DNA from: Flavobacteriales bacterium | Lineage (GTDB): Bacteria; Bacteroidota; Bacteroidia; JACJYZ01 | Reading direction: 5' to 3' | NCBI GenBank assembly: GCA_020635855.1 | Contig: JACJYZ010000003.1 | Coordinates: 49,937-113,936 of the forward strand | DNA length: 64,000 nucleotides | Notes under the pieces: generated by a model | What the model was told of the DNA's origin: nothing | Seen by the model: the letters and a program-made list of their open reading frames with translations, nothing else | Database searches by the model: none | Shown: positions 1 through 22,817 of the stretch, piece by piece | Position numbering within the stretch: position 1 is the first letter of the stretch | Layout: each line of letters starts with the position of its first letter | Translations under genes and position numbers: made by a program

Positions 1-420
1 TGAAGGATGCCATCTCTTGCTCTTGCTGTATGCAGTTGCTGTATGCTCTTGCTGTATACAGTTGCCGCATCCTCACCCCGCCAGGTGATCCTTCGCCATT
101 TCCTCCATTTTCTTCCTCAGCGACAAGGGCCGCATATCGGTCCACACTTCTTCGATGTAATCCAGGCATTCCTGTTTGGTGCCTTGTTTGCCGGCGGCAT
201 TCCACCCGAGGGGGACTTCCCGGTCGGCCGGCCAGATGTTGTATTGTTCTTCTGCATTCACGACAACCTGGTATTGGATGCCGTCGTCTTCAGGATCTTC
301 CCATGACATGGCGATGAGGTTTTGGTTTGGAGGGAAAGGTAGGGGAAAATTGGAAGGGATGTGTCATATGGTCATGCAATGGGTGTCGGTAGAATGACAC
401 ACAACATTGTAAAGGAATAT

Positions 421-1494
421 CTACTCCTTCACCCACCTTACACACTTCACTCCGTCCATACCTTCAATCATCACGTTGTACAATCCGGCCGGAAGATTTT
501 CCGTGGGGAGGGTTGTGTGAAGATCGCCGGATGATCCGACCTGCAAGGTCTGTTCATGCACCACCTGTCCGACCGAATTGATCATCCGTGCACGGTATAT
601 GCAATCACCCGCACTCTGCACATGCAACGTTGGATTGACATGATCACCGGCCGGGTTGGGGTAGAGCGTGGCGGTGAAGGCTTGCTGATCTTTTTGAGGA
701 AGGGTGGTGGCCACCTGGTATACGCGCACGTAATCCACGAACATCGTATCCGGGAAAACAGTGGTGCCGTCGGGGTATCCGGGCCAGTTGCCGCCTACAG
801 CCATATTCAGGATGATGAACTGGGGACTATGAAACTCTTCGGTGCTGTTGATGTTGTTGGAGATGTTGCCCTCCCAGTATTGGGTGCCATCCAGGAACCA
901 GCGGATGGCGGTGTTGTCCCACTCGATACCATACACGTGGTAGTCAGTGGCTGTGCAGGTGGTGTTGCCTCCGTACTGGGCATGGCCGTTGTTGTCCCAA
1001 TGCATGGTACCGTACGTTTTCGTTTCGGTGTTGATGTGTTCCATGATGTCGATCTCCCCACACTTGGGCCAGCCCACCTGGGTGATGTTCTCGCCCAGCA
1101 TCCAGAAGGCGGGCCAGATGCCTTTGCTTTGCTGCAGTTTGATGCGTGCCTCCACCTTGCCATAGGTCCAGTTCTGAAGGCCCTGCGTTTTCATTCGTGC
1201 AGAAGTGTAGTCGCTTCCTTTGTACGATTCTTTCCTGGCGATGATGAGCAGGTTGCCGTTGTGGGTGACGGCGTTCTCGGGGCGGTTGGAGTAGTATTCC
1301 CATTCGTTGTTACCCCATCCGCCGGCACCGGTTTCGAAAACCCAGTTGGCGGCATTGATGCTGTCGATGTCGAACTCATCCGACCAGACGAGTGACCAGG
1401 ATTGGGCTTGTACGTTCGGGGCAATGAGCATCAGTGCAAACGACAGGACACGGACCAGAGGTCCGCGCCAGCGGGTGGGAAGGTGGTGTGGCAT
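421..1494 (-). CDS. Glycoside hydrolase family 16 beta-glucanase (laminarinase-like), secreted, with T9SS C-terminal sorting domain
   Basis: Signal peptide MPHHLPTRWRGPLVRVLSFALMLIAPNVQAQ. GH16 catalytic motif GEIDIMEH (ExDxxE). ConA-like jellyroll signatures WSLVWSDEFD and WPAFWMLG. C-terminal ~80 aa resemble a Por/T9SS CTD (YPNPAGDHV ... YNVMIEGMDG). ATG confirmed at 1492-1494 (minus). Confidence 0.85.
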   Translation of the reverse strand: MPHHLPTRWRGPLVRVLSFALMLIAPNVQAQSWSLVWSDEFDIDSINAANWVFETGAGGWGNNEWEYYSNRPENAVTHNGNLLIIARKESYKGSDYTSARMKTQGLQNWTYGKVEARIKLQQSKGIWPAFWMLGENITQVGWPKCGEIDIMEHINTETKTYGTMHWDNNGHAQYGGNTTCTATDYHVYGIEWDNTAIRWFLDGTQYWEGNISNNINSTEEFHSPQFIILNMAVGGNWPGYPDGTTVFPDTMFVDYVRVYQVATTLPQKDQQAFTATLYPNPAGDHVNPTLHVQSAGDCIYRARMINSVGQVVHEQTLQVGSSGDLHTTLPTENLPAGLYNVMIEGMDGVKCVRWVKE

Positions 1495-2340: not shown

Positions 2341-5300
2341 TCATGACAGTGGAATGTGCAATTCAACGCGGGTTCCTATGGGGAAACCTTCCGCATCGGT
2401 CAGGTCAATTATTTCAACGCTCAATGCCCCTTTCCGGTGCTCATTCAAAATATCGAGTCGTTCTTTGGTGATCGACATTCCCATGGATTTGTGTTGTTTT
2501 GTTCTCGACCCGACATTGATCTCGGCGGACTTTTGTCTGCCTATTCCATTGTCTTCAATCACGCACAGCAGGTTGTTTTGCTCCATGCGGATGTCAATGA
2601 TTAATTTTCCTTTTTCCGTTTTGTGCATCAGGCCATGCCAGATGGCATTTTCCACATAGGGTTGGATCAGCATCGATGGGATATTGGTGTGGTTTACGTC
2701 CACATCCTCGTGTACGATAACATGGTATTCGAACCGGTTTCCGAAACGCAATGATTCCAGGTCGAGGTAGAGGTTCAATGCTTCGAGTTCTTTCTCCAAC
2801 GGGATCAGCGATGGCTTTGAATTGTCGATCACATAGCGGATCAGCCTGGCGAATTTGGACAAGTACTTTTGGGAAGACTTGGGATCATTACCGGTGATGA
2901 AGTATTGAACGGAGTTGATCGTGTTGAAGATGAAATGCGGGTTCATTTGCGCACGCAACGCTTTGAGTTCGGCCACGGACATCCGGGTTTTTCGGATCAT
3001 CCTCAACCGCTCCTGCCTTTGAATCACTTTCAATCTGTAGCGGAAGGCAAGGCCGATCAAAAGGCCGATCACGCCCATACCAATGAGCCTCACCGTCCAC
3101 GTATTCCACCAGGCCGGCCGGATGGTGAATTCGAGTGTGGCGGGCGTAGCGCTAAGAAAACCATCGCTGTTCATGGCATACACCACGAACCGGTAGGTGC
3201 CTTCAGGAAGTGTTTGGTATTTTACGGAAGTGTTGGTGCCATAGGTCCAATTGCTGTCGAGTCCTTCCAGCATGTACTTGTATTCCAACTGTCCCGGATT
3301 TTTGTATGAAAGGCCGATGTAGCGGATGGTGACATCATTCTGGTTGTGCATGAGGGCCGTCATACGGGTGGAGCTGTCGGGCAGGTTCCCATTGATCAGC
3401 ACCTTGTTGATATATATGGGAGGTGGGGTTCGGTCGTTTTTGATGTTGTCGGGATCAAATACGGTGATGCCGTTGTTGTGTGCGAGCCAGAGACGATCTT
3501 CCCTGGGAACGATGAAGTTCACTTCGTTGGTAAGCAGCCCGTTCCCTGCATTGTATGTTTCAACCGTATACTGAAAAGGTGTGTAGCTGCTGACAGTTAT
3601 TTTGTTCAATCCGTTGTTGGTTCCCACCCAAACATGTTGGTCGCCATCAACATACAACGTGCGGCACATATTGCTTGACAGGCCATCGCTCCGGCGGATA
3701 CGTAGGTAGCGCTTGTTCAGCCTCACCAGGATACCTTCACCCCGGGTGGCCATCCAAAGCGCATCATGGGCTCCTTCCGCAAATTCCACGATTCTGGCGG
3801 CGAGCTCACCATTGCCTTTGTTGCCTTCATACCGAAGGGCATGTTGTTCGTTCAGGGTATATATCCCGTTGATCGTGCAGATCCAGATGGTTCCATCGTG
3901 ATCTTCATAAAGGTTGTCGGCATAATAGGGGATGGTATCAACCAGCAGTTTTTCATGTTGCAGGTTGGAGTCTGCTTTTAGCACGGCGCGGTATTTCAGC
4001 ATGAGGATGTGGCCATCCCGCAGCTGGATAATTTTTTTTATGCCTTTTTCATCTGATCTCCGGAATTCATTTGTTGACGGAAGGAAGGTGAAGCCGGCAT
4101 TCCCCGTTTCAATGTGCAGGTAGCGGTCACGGTCGTTCCACATATCGGTGATCTCATTCCATCCTGTGGGCAGAATCCGGCCCCAGTCGGGTTTGATTGT
4201 TTGAACACCATGTTGGTTGAGAAAGCTTACCTCCCCGCTCAGGTGTCCGGTGACGATGTTGTTCCGGAACCGGCGCATGCAGGTGATGCCGCTTTGGGTC
4301 AGGCCGTCATCGGGGGTGAAGTACCTCAGGTTGCGATGAGGTATGCAATAGATGCCATGCCCTTTGGTACATATCCAAAGATTGTTTTCGGTATCACGGC
4401 AGACACTGGTGATGATCTTTTCCTCCAGTTTCCCGAAAAGTTCCGGCGATTCGGCATCGTAGTCCCCGAAGATCCGAATGCCACGATAGGTACCCACATA
4501 GGTAATGTGTGGGGTGTCTGCCAGCAGAGAGATCACGATGTCGTCGAAATGCTTCATGCTGATCAGGCCATCCCGATTGAACGTAAAAACAACGTTGTTC
4601 ACCGATGCCAGGTAGTGGTCATCCATGCGGTGAACGATGCAGCGCCCGGGGCCTGACAGGTTGCTTTGGCCGGTGTTGATGGTATACGGAGGCTGGTTCT
4701 GTGTGTACACGTTCAGAAGCAGTTGTTTGCCGGAAGCGCCGCCATATACCTGCCCGCCCGATTGGGTTTGGTAGAGGTAGGAGCCTTTCCTTGGCAGCGT
4801 GATTGTATCCACGGCGGCATTTGAACCGGGCGAGACCCTGATCAGGTAGTAGGAGGAGGTGCCCAGCCAGATGGTATCTTTAGGGCCAATGTACATGGAG
4901 GTGATGACGTCCCTTTGAATGGTCCGGGTAAGCGTTTCGTTCGCAGCAATGGTGTGAATTTTCCCATCCGTATAGCTGAAATAGGAGAGTTTACCCAGGG
5001 AAGACTGGAACCAGATGTTGTGGTTTCGATCTTCATAAACGCCAAAAATGGTGTTGTCTGTCAGTCCGTTTTCGGTGGTGAAGTTCGTGAAATGATAACC
5101 ATCGAACCAGCTTACCCCCATGTCTGTGGCAAACCACATATACCCTTTCGAATCCTGCAGCATGCCATACACCTCGGAGGAAGGCAGCCCGTCTTTCACA
5201 TTGAAATTCCGGAACTGGTAGAATTGCGCAGCACCCGGGAGCGACCAGGCAAGAAAAACAACAAACCATAGGGCTATGAATGGCCTTCGATGGTTTGTCG

Positions 5301-5382
5301 CTAGATGTTTTACCCCCCTCGAATGGTCTGGCATGAAGGTGAATGATAAGCGATTTTGTCTGTACTTATGGTAGGGGGGCAT
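2341..5382 (-). CDS. Sensor histidine kinase, LytS/YehU-type (His_kinase + HATPase), with large periplasmic two-component-regulator-propeller repeats and a Y_Y_Y domain
   Basis: Signal/TM segment FIALWFVVFLAWSLPGAAQ. Repeated beta-propeller motifs (YMWFATDMG, IWFQSS, IWLGTS, LWICT, LWMATRGEG, VWVGTNNG). Y_Y_Y-like EYKYMLEGLDSNWTY. Second TM LIGMGVIGLLIGLAFRY. LytS-type kinase motif MNPHFIFNTINSV. ATP-binding IEDNGIG. Alternative ATG at 5334. Confidence 0.85.
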   Translation of the reverse strand: MPPYHKYRQNRLSFTFMPDHSRGVKHLATNHRRPFIALWFVVFLAWSLPGAAQFYQFRNFNVKDGLPSSEVYGMLQDSKGYMWFATDMGVSWFDGYHFTNFTTENGLTDNTIFGVYEDRNHNIWFQSSLGKLSYFSYTDGKIHTIAANETLTRTIQRDVITSMYIGPKDTIWLGTSSYYLIRVSPGSNAAVDTITLPRKGSYLYQTQSGGQVYGGASGKQLLLNVYTQNQPPYTINTGQSNLSGPGRCIVHRMDDHYLASVNNVVFTFNRDGLISMKHFDDIVISLLADTPHITYVGTYRGIRIFGDYDAESPELFGKLEEKIITSVCRDTENNLWICTKGHGIYCIPHRNLRYFTPDDGLTQSGITCMRRFRNNIVTGHLSGEVSFLNQHGVQTIKPDWGRILPTGWNEITDMWNDRDRYLHIETGNAGFTFLPSTNEFRRSDEKGIKKIIQLRDGHILMLKYRAVLKADSNLQHEKLLVDTIPYYADNLYEDHDGTIWICTINGIYTLNEQHALRYEGNKGNGELAARIVEFAEGAHDALWMATRGEGILVRLNKRYLRIRRSDGLSSNMCRTLYVDGDQHVWVGTNNGLNKITVSSYTPFQYTVETYNAGNGLLTNEVNFIVPREDRLWLAHNNGITVFDPDNIKNDRTPPPIYINKVLINGNLPDSSTRMTALMHNQNDVTIRYIGLSYKNPGQLEYKYMLEGLDSNWTYGTNTSVKYQTLPEGTYRFVVYAMNSDGFLSATPATLEFTIRPAWWNTWTVRLIGMGVIGLLIGLAFRYRLKVIQRQERLRMIRKTRMSVAELKALRAQMNPHFIFNTINSVQYFITGNDPKSSQKYLSKFARLIRYVIDNSKPSLIPLEKELEALNLYLDLESLRFGNRFEYHVIVHEDVDVNHTNIPSMLIQPYVENAIWHGLMHKTEKGKLIIDIRMEQNNLLCVIEDNGIGRQKSAEINVGSRTKQHKSMGMSITKERLDILNEHRKGALSVEIIDLTDAEGFPIGTRVELHIPLS

Positions 5383-5424
5383 CCCCTTGCGTCAGATCAA
5401 AATTACCGTTTTTATGAATAGAAA

Positions 5425-5534
5425 TGTGTGTGACGGATGCTACTTGATAGCCCGGATGAAGGAGCAACCTTCGCCCACCGCATTCCAACATCAGGTATGA
5501 TGATAAAAGGCACGGATTGCAAATCCGCACCAGC
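5425..5534. repeat. Structured intergenic repeat, copy A (~110 nt)
   Basis: Aligns over its full length with copies B and C (GGATGCTNCGGGATNNCCGG-N-CGAAGG...CCTTCGCCCA-N-GATGNNAAGGCACGGATTGCAAATCCGCNCCAGC). Internal hairpins are kept by compensatory changes. Located between the OMP gene stop and the kinase start. Confidence 0.7.
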
Positions 5535-5568
5535 TACACGAACGTGAACGTACCCACCGGCAGGATAT

Positions 5569-6144
5569 TTATTTGGATGAATGCCTGCCCAACATCCAAC
5601 CGATCCCGAAGGTCAGGCGGTTCGGCTCGGACAGTTTGGCACCGCTTCCGGGAGAAAGTACCAACCCTTCGTAATGAGCATACAACATAAGCCGGTGAAT
5701 GCGAAGTGCCGGTCCGACCTTATAACCGACCCCGTCTTTGCGAATGGAAAGGTTGTTGTTCAGGTCGTGGTCAACGGCGAATATGCGGTTGTAGGTGGGG
5801 CCGCCTTCAACGGACAGCGGTCCGAGCAGGTGAAGGCCTACCATCACCGGGAACTGAATACGGTGCAGGGTGATGTGGGCGTTGTTGTCGTTGTTCACCG
5901 TACCGGTACGGAACAGGTACAGGGCTTCGGGTTGCAGGTAAATGCCGTTCATGTCGAGCCGGTAGAACAGTCCGGCTTCCATGCCGGTGATCTGGTTGCC
6001 GCTGATGAAATCTTTGAACGAATCATATTGGAGGCGGATGTTTCCGTTGCCGGCACCGGCTTTGATGCCCAGGCCCGATTGGGCATTCACTGCAGTGAAT
6101 GTGCCCAGCAACAGGATGAGGGATATATATCGGATTTGTCTCAT
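5569..6144 (-). CDS. Small outer-membrane beta-barrel protein (OmpA-like/porin family)
   Basis: Signal peptide MRQIRYISLILLLGTFTAVNAQ. ~170-aa mature part with alternating amphipathic strands and an aromatic-rich C-terminus, as in Bacteroidetes OMP_b-brl proteins. Confidence 0.6.
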   Translation of the reverse strand: MRQIRYISLILLLGTFTAVNAQSGLGIKAGAGNGNIRLQYDSFKDFISGNQITGMEAGLFYRLDMNGIYLQPEALYLFRTGTVNNDNNAHITLHRIQFPVMVGLHLLGPLSVEGGPTYNRIFAVDHDLNNNLSIRKDGVGYKVGPALRIHRLMLYAHYEGLVLSPGSGAKLSEPNRLTFGIGWMLGRHSSK

Positions 6145-6242
6145 GATACCATGCTTTTGTATATCCTAACGAAAAAATCGTTCCAATCTGTGTGAACGGG
6201 AGATGAAGAATGAAGGGTGGGATAGAAAGCGGTGTCGGATCC

Positions 6243-6356
6243 GGTGAGGTGTGGCGGATGCTTCGGGATGACCGGGCGAAGGTGAAACCTTTGCCCAACG
6301 CATTGCCGGATCAAACGTGGCGATGAAAAGGCACGGATTACAAATCCGCGCCAGCG
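6243..6356. repeat. Structured intergenic repeat, copy B
   Basis: See copy A. Contains hairpins GGGCGAAGGT/ACCTTTGCCC and GGCACGGATT/AATCCGCGCC. Confidence 0.7.
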
Positions 6357-6632
6357 GCTGGAATTGTCACATGATGTTGGTTTATATTCTTGTTATTGAA
6401 GCACAATGCCCTGTAGGACGATTTGTGTGCGGTTGGGAACGATATGGTGGGCAGCGTGGCGCGAAGGTGCCGTGCCTGATGGGATCGGGCAGGGCTGGCT
6501 GGTGCGGCAAACATCAGGCGCAGGGCATATATCGTTCTTGATTTTTTGGTTCTTTTTCATCAAGGAAAAACGAACAAAAAGAACAGAAGTGACATCGATC
6601 TGCCACCTGTCACTTAGCCGGTGGGTGAAAGT

Positions 6633-6745
6633 GGTGTGAGGTAGCGGATGCTACGGGATAGCCGGACGAAGGTACAACCTTCGCCCAACGGTTTGCTGAA
6701 TCAGATGTGACGATGTAAGGCACGAATTGCAAATCCGCGCCAGCG
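6633..6745. repeat. Structured intergenic repeat, copy C
   Basis: See copy A. Roughly 80% identical to copy B with stem-preserving substitutions. Confidence 0.7.
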
Positions 6746-6898
6746 CCACTAACATAAAACCGGCGACAACGACCCGCCACCTGCCCTCTAGCCGGGATAG
6801 CAGTGGAAAGGCACGCCTTGGCAGGGGTGGTGGCGATGGAGGCGGGACTTGCAACGGATAGCCCGACGGCAGTTGGAGAGAACGATAACCCGTCCGCT

Positions 6899-7561
6899 TC
6901 AGAAAGAATAGGAATAACTCACCCCGGTGATGAAAGACGTCCAGGGGTTCTTCACCTGCACTTCTTTGTTGATCATGTAAAACAGTTCTATGCTGCTGAA
7001 CTTGTTCAACTCATAGTCGACTCCGCCGCGAAAGCGCACCTTGGTGACCCACTCGTCCATGCGGTAGAAGATTTCCGATTCGAGGTAGGGCGTGTACTTC
7101 TTTTCCAGGTTGTATTTCAGGGTGAGGCGGCTGCGCAGGTAGTTCTTTGCAACATCGCCTTTTTCGCGGCGGTTGATGTCGTTGTAGCTCGACTGGTACC
7201 TTTCTCTCAGGACCAGGCTGAGGGGTTTGAACTTGATCTTGTAGGACAGGTCAATGTAATAGCGATGACGTTGGCTGTAGTGGTTGTCGGGTTCCCGTTC
7301 CTGCCCGAAACGATAGAAAGCGGAAGCCTCCAGGCGGCGCATGAGCTTGTATGAGCCGCCGATTTCGGTGAAGGCAGATCCCAGTTCGGATACATTCTCG
7401 TTCCAGCGGAGGGCCTGGCCAAGCTCAACGGAAAACGATTGTGTGAGCTTCTTTTTCGCTGAAGCTTGTAACCAGAGTCCGGCGTCTTTCACCTGCGCAT
7501 GGCAGATGACGGGGAGGACCAGCAGGCCGATAAAACAGGTTGCCAGCCGCCTATACCTCAT
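6899..7561 (-). CDS. DUF2490-like outer-membrane protein (predicted beta-barrel)
   Basis: Signal peptide MRYRRLATCFIGLLVLPVICHAQ. Y/R/K-rich amphipathic strands. C-terminal ...GVSYSYSF (aromatic terminal residue typical of OM beta-barrels). Start overlaps the upstream DUF4956 gene end by 11 nt. Confidence 0.5.
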   Translation of the reverse strand: MRYRRLATCFIGLLVLPVICHAQVKDAGLWLQASAKKKLTQSFSVELGQALRWNENVSELGSAFTEIGGSYKLMRRLEASAFYRFGQEREPDNHYSQRHRYYIDLSYKIKFKPLSLVLRERYQSSYNDINRREKGDVAKNYLRSRLTLKYNLEKKYTPYLESEIFYRMDEWVTKVRFRGGVDYELNKFSSIELFYMINKEVQVKNPWTSFITGVSYSYSF

Positions 7562-22740: not shown

Positions 22741-22744
22741 CTAG

Positions 22745-22817
<73 letters not shown>

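Follow-up and report, generated by a model that had tools for sequence, protein, structure and literature searches.

Within a 64,000-nt window of a Flavobacteriales bacterium genome (contig JACJYZ010000003.1 of assembly GCA_020635855.1), the whole stretch of DNA analysed here and the reference for all coordinates below, there is a family of composite intergenic repeats of ~110 nt. We consider that these units are very probably lineage-specific mosaics of repetitive extragenic palindrome (REP) hairpins, one of which, termed REP-B, is cognate to the REP-associated tyrosine transposases (RAYTs) of subclass 2.6, a clade specific to Bacteroidota. REPs are short palindromic DNA repeats, and RAYTs are domesticated transposases that spread them. 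The repeats lie among minus-strand genes that encode a GH16 protein with a type IX secretion system sorting domain (421-1494), a LytTR response regulator (1538-2293), a histidine kinase (2341-5382), a beta-barrel outer membrane protein (OMP; 5569-6144) and a DUF2490 protein (6899-7561), a gene content that assigns the window to Bacteroidota. The original prediction described three copies of ~110 nt, about 75-80% identical, with two hairpins in each and minus-strand genes as neighbours. An nhmmer profile made from the three proposed copies and run on the window recovered them on the plus strand at 5424-5545 (copy 1; E = 1.7e-36), 6240-6364 (copy 2; E = 2.8e-38) and 6629-6754 (copy 3; E = 2.2e-40), with pairwise identities of 73.0, 75.5 and 80.0% (73-75.5% for copy 1 against the other copies); both hairpins are found in all three copies, and the gene context is as described. 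Copy 1 is flanked by the OMP stop (5569) on one side and by the start of the histidine kinase gene (5382) on the other, and copies 2 and 3 share a gap of 754 bp upstream of the OMP gene. Allowing one mismatch at most, we found the 28-nt core of the second hairpin three times in the window, against 0.00 occurrences expected from 100 shuffles. The three full copies and one remnant all fall within the first 7 kb; the other 57 kb of the window yielded none.

We read the unit on the plus strand as a small hairpin, a first REP-like module (REP-A), a linker of ~30 nt and REP-B, all in direct orientation. REP-B, the second hairpin, has a 10-bp stem and a 3-nt loop with the consensus GGCACGGATT-NCA-AATCCGCGCC-AGC. 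On the plus strand it reads GGCACGGATT-GCA-AATCCGCACC plus the AGC tag in copy 1 (5509-5534; 50.3 bits against the covariance model R1), GGCACGGATT-ACA-AATCCGCGCC-AGC in copy 2 (6330-6355; 56.8 bits), where the tag and the 10-bp hairpin are read on the minus strand, and GGCACGAATT-GCA-AATCCGCGCC-AGC in copy 3 (6719-6744; 46.0 bits). REP-A has the general form GGACGAAGGT-NNN-ACCTTCGCCC-AAC and reads, again on the plus strand, GGATGAAGG-AGCAA-CCTTCGCCC-ACC in copy 1 (5454-5479), GGGCGAAGGT-GAA-ACCTTTGCCC-AAC in copy 2 (6274-6299) and GGACGAAGGT-ACA-ACCTTCGCCC-AAC in copy 3 (6664-6689). The small 5′ hairpin, read from the sequence and its fold, is clearest in copy 3 (6641-6654, plus strand), where it is GTAGC-GGAT-GCTAC (GTAGCGGATGCTAC), and weaker equivalents are present on the same strand at 6251-6264 in copy 2 and at 5430-5443 in copy 1. 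Compared segment by segment, the three copies are identical at 24/26 positions of REP-B and at 20-22/26 positions of REP-A, with identities of 66-77% in the 5′ part and 60-70% in the linker, a pattern that agrees with conserved cores and drifting linkers. It had been claimed that the differences between the copies preserve the hairpins, with G-U wobbles on the minus strand. What we observed instead were one-sided changes, giving wobbles or mismatches on either strand, and no compensatory double change at any pair among the three window copies; the evidence for a selected hairpin therefore comes from the wider family.

That family extends across the phylum. A scan of one genome per species with the pattern AAGGCACGRATTRCAAATCYG, an exact 21-mer, gave at least 120 loci (numbered here with the prefix L) that carry the 26-28 nt REP-B core, and all of these belong to Bacteroidota except L073, a contig of the Rhizobiaceae group with one chance match to the pattern. 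The taxa among the matches listed include Bacteroidales, Marinilabiliales/Prolixibacteraceae, Marinilabiliaceae, Rikenellaceae, Prevotellaceae and Crocinitomicaceae, together with the Flavobacteriales genera Myroides, Empedobacter, Lutibacter, Aquimarina and Salinimicrobium. Nearly all of the listed loci align to the unit at the ~30-nt core only (positions ~87-119 of the profile), with unrelated flanks, and the longest alignment to the unit profile among them, in L001, spans positions 43-118. The bases CGCCAGC, which lie outside the search pattern, each show at least 90% conservation. To describe the context of REP-B, we used 269 copies, found with up to three mismatches in 862 kb of these loci, and counted as coding the open reading frames (ORFs) of 100 aa or more. 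Such ORFs take up 81% of the loci and leave 19% intergenic, yet 250 of the 269 copies (93%) are located outside them; convergent contexts are more frequent than divergent ones (39 vs 15), and where the neighbouring genes are in tandem (122 contexts), the tag-first strand runs with the genes in 75 cases and against them in 47. Inverted, REPIN-like doublets of REP-B (a REPIN being a pair of inverted REPs that together form one long hairpin) were found in L015, L031, L045, L087, L103 and L110, and tandem arrays in L070 (4391-4644, period 42-44) and L079 (4305-4436, period 45). These arrays run head to tail with near-identical spacers, and they superficially resemble clustered regularly interspaced short palindromic repeats (CRISPRs), without variable spacers. 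Two further observations concern the surroundings of REP-B. It adjoins 5S rRNA genes where rRNA operons end, in L023 (1218-1259) and in L116 (Paenimyroides), and at L004, L024, L039, L098, L107, L114 and L120 the match is part of a different, larger conserved mosaic that is present in many metagenome-assembled genomes (MAGs) of Bacteroidales. In this larger mosaic, repeated GGCACGGATTACAACCGAGCAAA units are followed by REP-B and then by ...TTTGCGAGCTCGGCG AAGCCAAATCCGCGCC, and its CCGAGC and GCTCGG segments can pair into a long hairpin.

Because selection by an exact 21-mer biases any estimate of invariance, we analysed 220 copies in the listed loci that had not been selected by the pattern, which comprise 103 distinct sequences. 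In the 103 sequences, compensatory cells number 76, against 16.7 ± 3.5 in shuffles, and none of 500 shuffles reached 76; double changes occur at 8 of the 10 stem pairs. The inner stems of REP-B variants include GATT/AATC, GAAA/TTTC, GACA/TGTC and CGAT/ATCG. Paired cells amount to 78.3%, against 69.1% in shuffles, and when the partner strand is slid by 1-3 columns the pairing falls to 22-46%. Thus, the REP-B stem covaries, and the hairpin has been maintained by selection. Two features of the hairpin are fixed or nearly so. Pair 4 is an A.C mismatch, or G.T on the tag-first strand, in 102 of the 103 sequences, and the 3′ tag is AGC (GCT on the other strand) in 124 of the 220 copies and in 30 it is ATC. 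An enzyme that binds DNA according to both sequence and shape would be expected to impose a fixed irregularity and a fixed foot tag on its target, and a generic RNA stem needs neither.

Which enzyme might this be? In 7 of the 120 listed loci, a motif scan of six-frame translations revealed a Y1 transposase of ~176 aa with the motifs TNH[LV]H and YIHQNPV. For a gene present once per genome, the expected number of such loci is ~0.2, if an 8-kb locus holds ~7 genes and a genome ~4,000. The protein matches the Pfam family PF01797 (Y1_Tnp; E = 3.9e-11) and the NCBIfam family NF047646, 'REP-associated tyrosine transposase' (102.7 bits, cut-off 80). Its best match in the PDB is TnpA-REP of Escherichia coli (4ER8), a weak one (E = 1.4e-3), and a profile search gave at least 7,941 homologues, many of which are annotated as RayT. 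In L009, L011, L040, L052, L101 and L106, the RAYT gene is bracketed by the REP-B core in inverted orientation, with GCTGGCGCGGATTTGCAATCCGTGCC (the inverted core) upstream of the ORF and, past the stop codon, GGCACGGATTACAAATCCGCGCCAGC (the direct core) downstream. Five of these six loci have the upstream core 26-115 nt before the ORF and the downstream core at a distance of 20-51 nt from the stop; in L052, the distances to the nearest cores are 165 nt upstream and 117-161 nt downstream. L099 has the most divergent RAYT, with 59-64% identity to the others, and here the bracketing hairpin is a co-varied one, GCCACGCGAT-GCA-ATCGCGCGG-CAGC. The inverted bracketing of a RAYT gene by its repeat is the defining arrangement of a REP-RAYT system. 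The RAYTs that are flanked by REP-B diverge to 66% identity, whereas the REP-B core is nearly invariant across orders.

A class of RAYTs with these properties has been reported. Subclass 2.6, which equals group 5 of Bertels, is found mostly in Bacteroidetes and has a median length of 179 aa and the motifs NH[LIV]H and YIH[QN]NP (Quentin et al. 2018, BMC Genomics 19:475, PMC6006769). Its members have, at their flanks, 'atypical secondary structures' without a GT[AG]G tag, of which further copies occur elsewhere in the genome, and Table S1 of that study gives the REP sequences CTTTGCGGGCACGGATTGCAAATCCGCGCAATCG for Flavobacterium johnsoniae, which contains the core GGCACGGATTGCAAATCCGCGC, GCTGGCGCGAGCATATGCTCGTGCC for Spirosoma linguale, GCTGGCGCGGGCGTCCCGCCCGTG for Aequorivita and CTGGCGCAAGGTTCTACCTTGTGC for Flexibacter litoralis (PMC6006769). 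We noted that these sequences take the general form GCT[GA]G-CGCG-inner stem-loop-inner stem-CGTG-CC. Read on the minus strand, the window REP-B is GCTGG-CGCGGATT-TGC-AATCCGTG-CC, and it fits this form exactly, as does a variant REP at 1472-1447, which reads GCTGG-CGCGGACC-TCT-GGTCCGTG-TC; the published tag-first reading (GCTGG...) corresponds to the minus strand of the window, and the core of copy 1 is the same as that of the published F. johnsoniae REP. A subclass 2.6 RAYT of F. johnsoniae is ABQ05095.1. The resemblance covers the core GGCACGGATTGCAAATCCGCGC, the GCT[GA]G tag in place of GT[AG]G, the stem of ~10 bp with one G.T, the 3-nt loop, the position beside a RAYT of ~176-179 aa with the motifs NH[LIV]H and YIH[QN]NP, and the scattered genomic copies. 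REP-B is thus the published subclass 2.6 REP; it is multi-copy and extragenic and is found at the flanks of RAYT genes. The difference lies in the arrangement, since REP-B of the window is embedded in a mosaic of ~110 nt together with REP-A and a small hairpin, and no such unit is described in PMC6006769.

In copy 3, REP-A reads GTTGG-GCGAAGGT-TGT-ACCTTCGT-CC on the minus strand, with the same tag-stem-loop-stem architecture as REP-B and one G.T, and its architecture resembles that of the F. litoralis REP (CTGGCGCAAGGTTCTACCTTGTGC). Within the window, a tag, a 10-bp stem and a 3-nt loop are shared by the three REP-B copies, REP-A of copy 3 and the variant at 1447-1472, all of which are tag-first on the minus strand. 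By architecture alone, we would assign REP-A to a second REP-like type. A metagenome scan with a REP-A pattern showed that this module, of the kind found in copy 1, is also multi-copy, with four copies in L131, four in L135, two in L139 and further copies in other contigs. In these contigs, REP-A is preceded by the small hairpin GTAGCTGTAAGCTAC, to which the small hairpin GTAGCGGATGCTAC of the window is equivalent, and the stem of REP-A shows a compensatory change from T-A to C-G. The combined module GTAGCTGTAAGCTAC-N10-GGTCGAAGGTGCAACCTTCGCCCAACG recurs in contigs from soil and other metagenomes, L131, L135 and L139 among them, as a second REP-like family. REP-A was not found in the 120 listed REP-B loci.

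Two further REP sequences lie near the start of the window. The original prediction had listed a core fragment at 1508-1532; nhmmer confirmed a match there (1507-1538, E = 3.6e-4), and the element proved to be longer, a plus-strand REP-B at 1508-1540 whose left arm and loop are intact and whose right arm, AATCTGAACC, has decayed (20.5 bits against the model R1). In the stretch 1529-1540, the decayed right arm of the REP (1516-1538) shares one base with the stop codon of the LytTR gene (1538-1540), and the end of the gene is fused with the repeat. A fourth unit, truncated and at 1484-1540, may have this decayed REP-B as its 3′ end; the similarity of 1484-1506 to the left end of the unit is marginal, being matched by 13-14 of 500 shuffles. 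The variant REP (1447-1472, plus strand; 11.1 bits) reads GACACGGACC-AGA-GGTCCGCGCC-AGC and differs by a compensatory replacement of the inner stem, from ATT/AAT to ACC/GGT. Scanning the window with the model R1 gave five REP-B copies, four of which are intergenic. The variant lies within codons ~8-16 of the GH16 ORF (421-1494, minus strand), and its translation there, RWRGPLVRV, belongs to the basic n-region of a predicted signal peptide (MPHHLPTRWRGPLVRVLSFALMLIAPNVQA). Because no alternative in-frame start would leave it out, this REP was apparently absorbed into the 5′ end of the GH16 coding sequence.

The original prediction had stated that no known RNA family fits the repeats, and an Rfam scan of the three copies agrees with this, giving no match at the gathering threshold or at E values up to 10; REP-B in 38 other loci likewise had no match. 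We considered that the element might derive from a tRNA-Cys, since GGATTGCAAATCC resembles an anticodon arm with GCA. This candidate was rejected, because ARAGORN and the Rfam tRNA model called no tRNA at the window copies or at those of the 120 listed loci. The window does contain one match to the Flavo-1 RNA motif (RF01705), an intergenic hairpin motif of Bacteroidota of unknown function, on the plus strand at 6786-6872 (43.6 bits, gathering threshold 42). Copy 3 ends 32 nt (6755-6785) before this match, which is not part of the repeat family; the motif follows the stop of the DUF2490 gene by 27 nt (6872-6898), and the genes are on the other strand. The three copies score nothing against the Flavo-1 model, even at E values up to 10, and we rejected the idea that the two are the same element. 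A comparison of Flavo-1 with the 5′ part of the unit and with inverted REP-B gave two short local similarities, each of which was matched by 2 of 300 shuffles, and in the 38 other loci Flavo-1 does not co-occur with REP-B, the only other Flavo-1, in L115, being ~7 kb from the REP. In the transcriptome of Flavobacterium psychrophilum, Flavo-1 was found in sense or antisense orientation relative to transcripts and frequently in DNA that is not transcribed (PMC9723704), which suggests that Flavo-1 may itself be a repeat at the DNA level.

Could the repeats instead be dedicated intrinsic terminators or attenuators of the minus-strand OMP, DUF2490 and LytTR genes? Copies follow the stops of minus-strand genes, and the hairpin of REP-B, GC-rich and of 10 bp, resembles that of a Rho-independent terminator. 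The second hairpin had been described as followed by UUUUC in each copy on the minus strand; this is the case in copy 2, and copy 1 has UUUUA, a run of four U's in two of the three copies, but copy 3 has UUACAU and thus no U run. A scan with a lax consensus called 6352-6330 and 5531-5509 terminator-like, each a 10-bp stem followed by UUUUC or UUUUA, as well as the variant at 1469-1447. The excess of convergent over divergent contexts, an enrichment at gene 3′ ends, and the 75 of 122 co-directional tandem contexts also favour this reading. In the family as a whole, however, TTTT follows within 8 nt of the hairpin on the tag-first strand in only 45 of 263 copies (17%), the first two T's having been imposed by the search pattern in about half of them, and 83% of the family has no U-tract. 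Moreover, the other 47 tandem contexts have the opposite orientation, the two tandem copies 390 nt apart upstream of the OMP gene stand where a cassette is not obviously needed, and the conserved tag, the fixed mismatch and the flanking of RAYT genes have no rationale in a terminator; the family is defined by its tag and mismatch. An extragenic location, enrichment at 3′ ends, a mild orientation bias and no conserved U-tract are the signature of REPs and not of a dedicated terminator family, so that we regard a terminator cassette as improbable. Copies 1 and 2 are terminator-like and may have an incidental role as 3′-end hairpins.

A small structured RNA family of ~110 nt, whether trans-acting or cis-regulatory and transcribed from either strand, is hardly credible. 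Two folds are better than their shuffles, that of copy 2 with z = -2.9 (plus strand) and that of copy 3 with z = -4.1 (minus strand), and a motif classed as a small RNA, Flavo-1, adjoins copy 3, but the remaining four folds have z-scores of -1.2 to -1.8, Rfam is silent, the three copies share no compensatory change, and elsewhere only the short hairpins are conserved and not the unit. In addition, no sigma-70-type promoter-like site was found at the copies in a scan that does not cover promoters of the Bacteroidota type. The proposal that the family as such is a transcribed structured RNA repeat, be it a terminator, an attenuator or a small RNA, is not supported, given the unrelated flanks, the occurrence of both orientations, the U-tract in 17% of copies and the silence of Rfam. 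The other proposed identity was an element like a miniature inverted-repeat transposable element (MITE). Its general sense survives, in that REPs are non-autonomous elements tied to RAYTs, but neither terminal inverted repeats nor target-site duplications were found at the unit ends by inspection of the sequence and by a repeat search, and for this reason the unit is not a classical MITE. The absence of full copies and remnants beyond the initial 7 kb of the window, and of the full unit from other loci, would also suit a MITE or a plain segmental duplication with a coincidental resemblance to REPs. REP-B, however, is 24/26 identical between the copies, against 60-70% for the linkers. Since REP-B is identical to a sequence that flanks RAYT genes throughout the phylum and the cores have outlasted the linkers, its resemblance to REPs is not coincidental, and we consider a classical MITE or such a duplication very improbable.

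How might the mosaic of REP hairpins have arisen? By analogy with E. coli TnpA-REP and the IS200/IS605 transposases, we propose that the RAYT, a Y1 HUH enzyme, recognises the folded single-stranded REP hairpin with its tag, and that it would cut and rejoin DNA at the tag, thereby seeding and maintaining intergenic copies. The local anatomy suggests that the 110-nt mosaic arose in this lineage and that local duplication of the whole unit followed, so that a stretch of 5.3 kb now holds three full copies and perhaps a fourth, truncated one. Subsequently, the REP cores would have stayed conserved while the linkers drifted. The window copies run in the direction of the minus-strand genes, so that transcription probably places them in 3′ untranslated regions or intergenic RNA. 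REPs of E. coli also act as stabilisers of mRNA 3′ ends or as terminators, and by analogy transcription may pause or end at the hairpins here, or the hairpins may stop 3′ exonucleases, as a by-product rather than the raison d'etre of the family.

The system shares several features with the REPs and bacterial interspersed mosaic elements (BIMEs) of E. coli, namely extragenic imperfect palindromes with a foot tag and an irregularity in the stem, mosaics of more than one REP type, and a position at the flanks of a Y1 HUH transposase. It differs in the tag, which is GTAG in E. coli and GCTGG here, and in the RAYT subclass. In BIMEs, moreover, REPs alternate in orientation and are joined by defined linkers, whereas in the window they are direct and joined by lineage-specific linkers, and the unit thus departs from the BIME definition. 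REPIN-RAYT systems of Pseudomonas, reportedly described by Bertels and Rainey in 2011, likewise combine non-autonomous hairpin repeats with a RAYT that is present in single copy and inherited vertically. The REPINs of Pseudomonas vary from species to species, whereas the REP-B core is nearly invariant across orders, and the window unit contains no inverted doublet. We did consider a REPIN for the unit itself. REP-A and REP-B are read on one strand, no inverted partner was found in the window, and the left end of the unit, taken as a decayed inverted REP-B, shares only G.GCGGAT with it, which is not convincing; because its two REPs are direct and not inverted, the unit is not a REPIN.

Several observations weigh against the reading of the units as RAYT-linked REP mosaics. 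A motif scan found no RAYT gene in the 64-kb window, so that a tie of the window copies to an active RAYT can only be presumed at this locus, and no RAYT was seen beside REP-A, nor within the 24 metagenome loci that carry it. The full 110-nt unit was found only at this locus and in near-identical assemblies (GCA_020435405.1 and two Logan assemblies): nhmmer found none in the 120 listed loci, and the metagenome scan with the REP-A pattern gave only matches of the size of REP-A and unrelated coding matches in human-gut contigs. The mobility of the unit itself is thus unproven, and three copies within 1.3 kb could be accounted for by duplication in place. The one OMP homologue found (56% identity; L148 of the sister MAG GCA_020435415.1) lies in a locus that is not syntenic and is without a REP. 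Finally, selection by an exact 21-mer makes the apparent invariance of REP-B across the phylum partly an ascertainment effect. It is conceivable, if rather unlikely, that the mosaic is more than REP debris and has been co-opted in this Flavobacteriales lineage as a 3′-UTR or intergenic module that sets the ends or the stability of transcripts. It is likewise conceivable, if rather unlikely, that the near-invariance of the REP-B core and its A.C/G.T pair across orders, set against RAYTs that diverge to ~66% identity, reflects a host function or an unusually rigid code of RAYT-DNA recognition, and not an ordinary co-drift of repeat and enzyme.

The window has some further features. The DNA between copies 2 and 3 (6520-6580) is AT-rich and contains nested inverted repeats, GTTCTTTTT...AAAAAGAAC and CTTGAT...ATCAAG; in Rfam, it has only a chance-level match (Plastid-rpoB, E = 5.6). 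A unit of 13/26 nt, TGCTCTTGCTGTATGCAGTTGCTGTA, is repeated three times in tandem at the start of the window (18-69). On the minus strand, there are a thiamine pyrophosphate (TPP) riboswitch (RF00059; 57529-57628; 58.8 bits) and a tRNA-Met gene (CAT; 22744-22817).

Taken as RAYT-linked REP mosaics, the repeats belong to a kind of element that is already known and are not a new RNA family; it is the mosaic arrangement that is new, and the current understanding is not overturned. Rfam holds no model that would flag elements of the REP-B type, and intergenic repeats of this sort in Bacteroidota should be annotated as RAYT-associated REPs and not pursued as riboswitches or small RNAs. For the 'atypical' REPs of RAYT subclass 2.6, our analysis provides a concrete consensus that is backed by covariation, and it indicates that one core recurs from Prevotellaceae to Flavobacteriaceae and that two REP types can fuse into a larger mosaic that is itself duplicated. 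F. johnsoniae has the same REP and, as a genetically tractable organism, should be convenient for studying how a RAYT recognises its REP and what side effects these hairpins may have at the RNA level.

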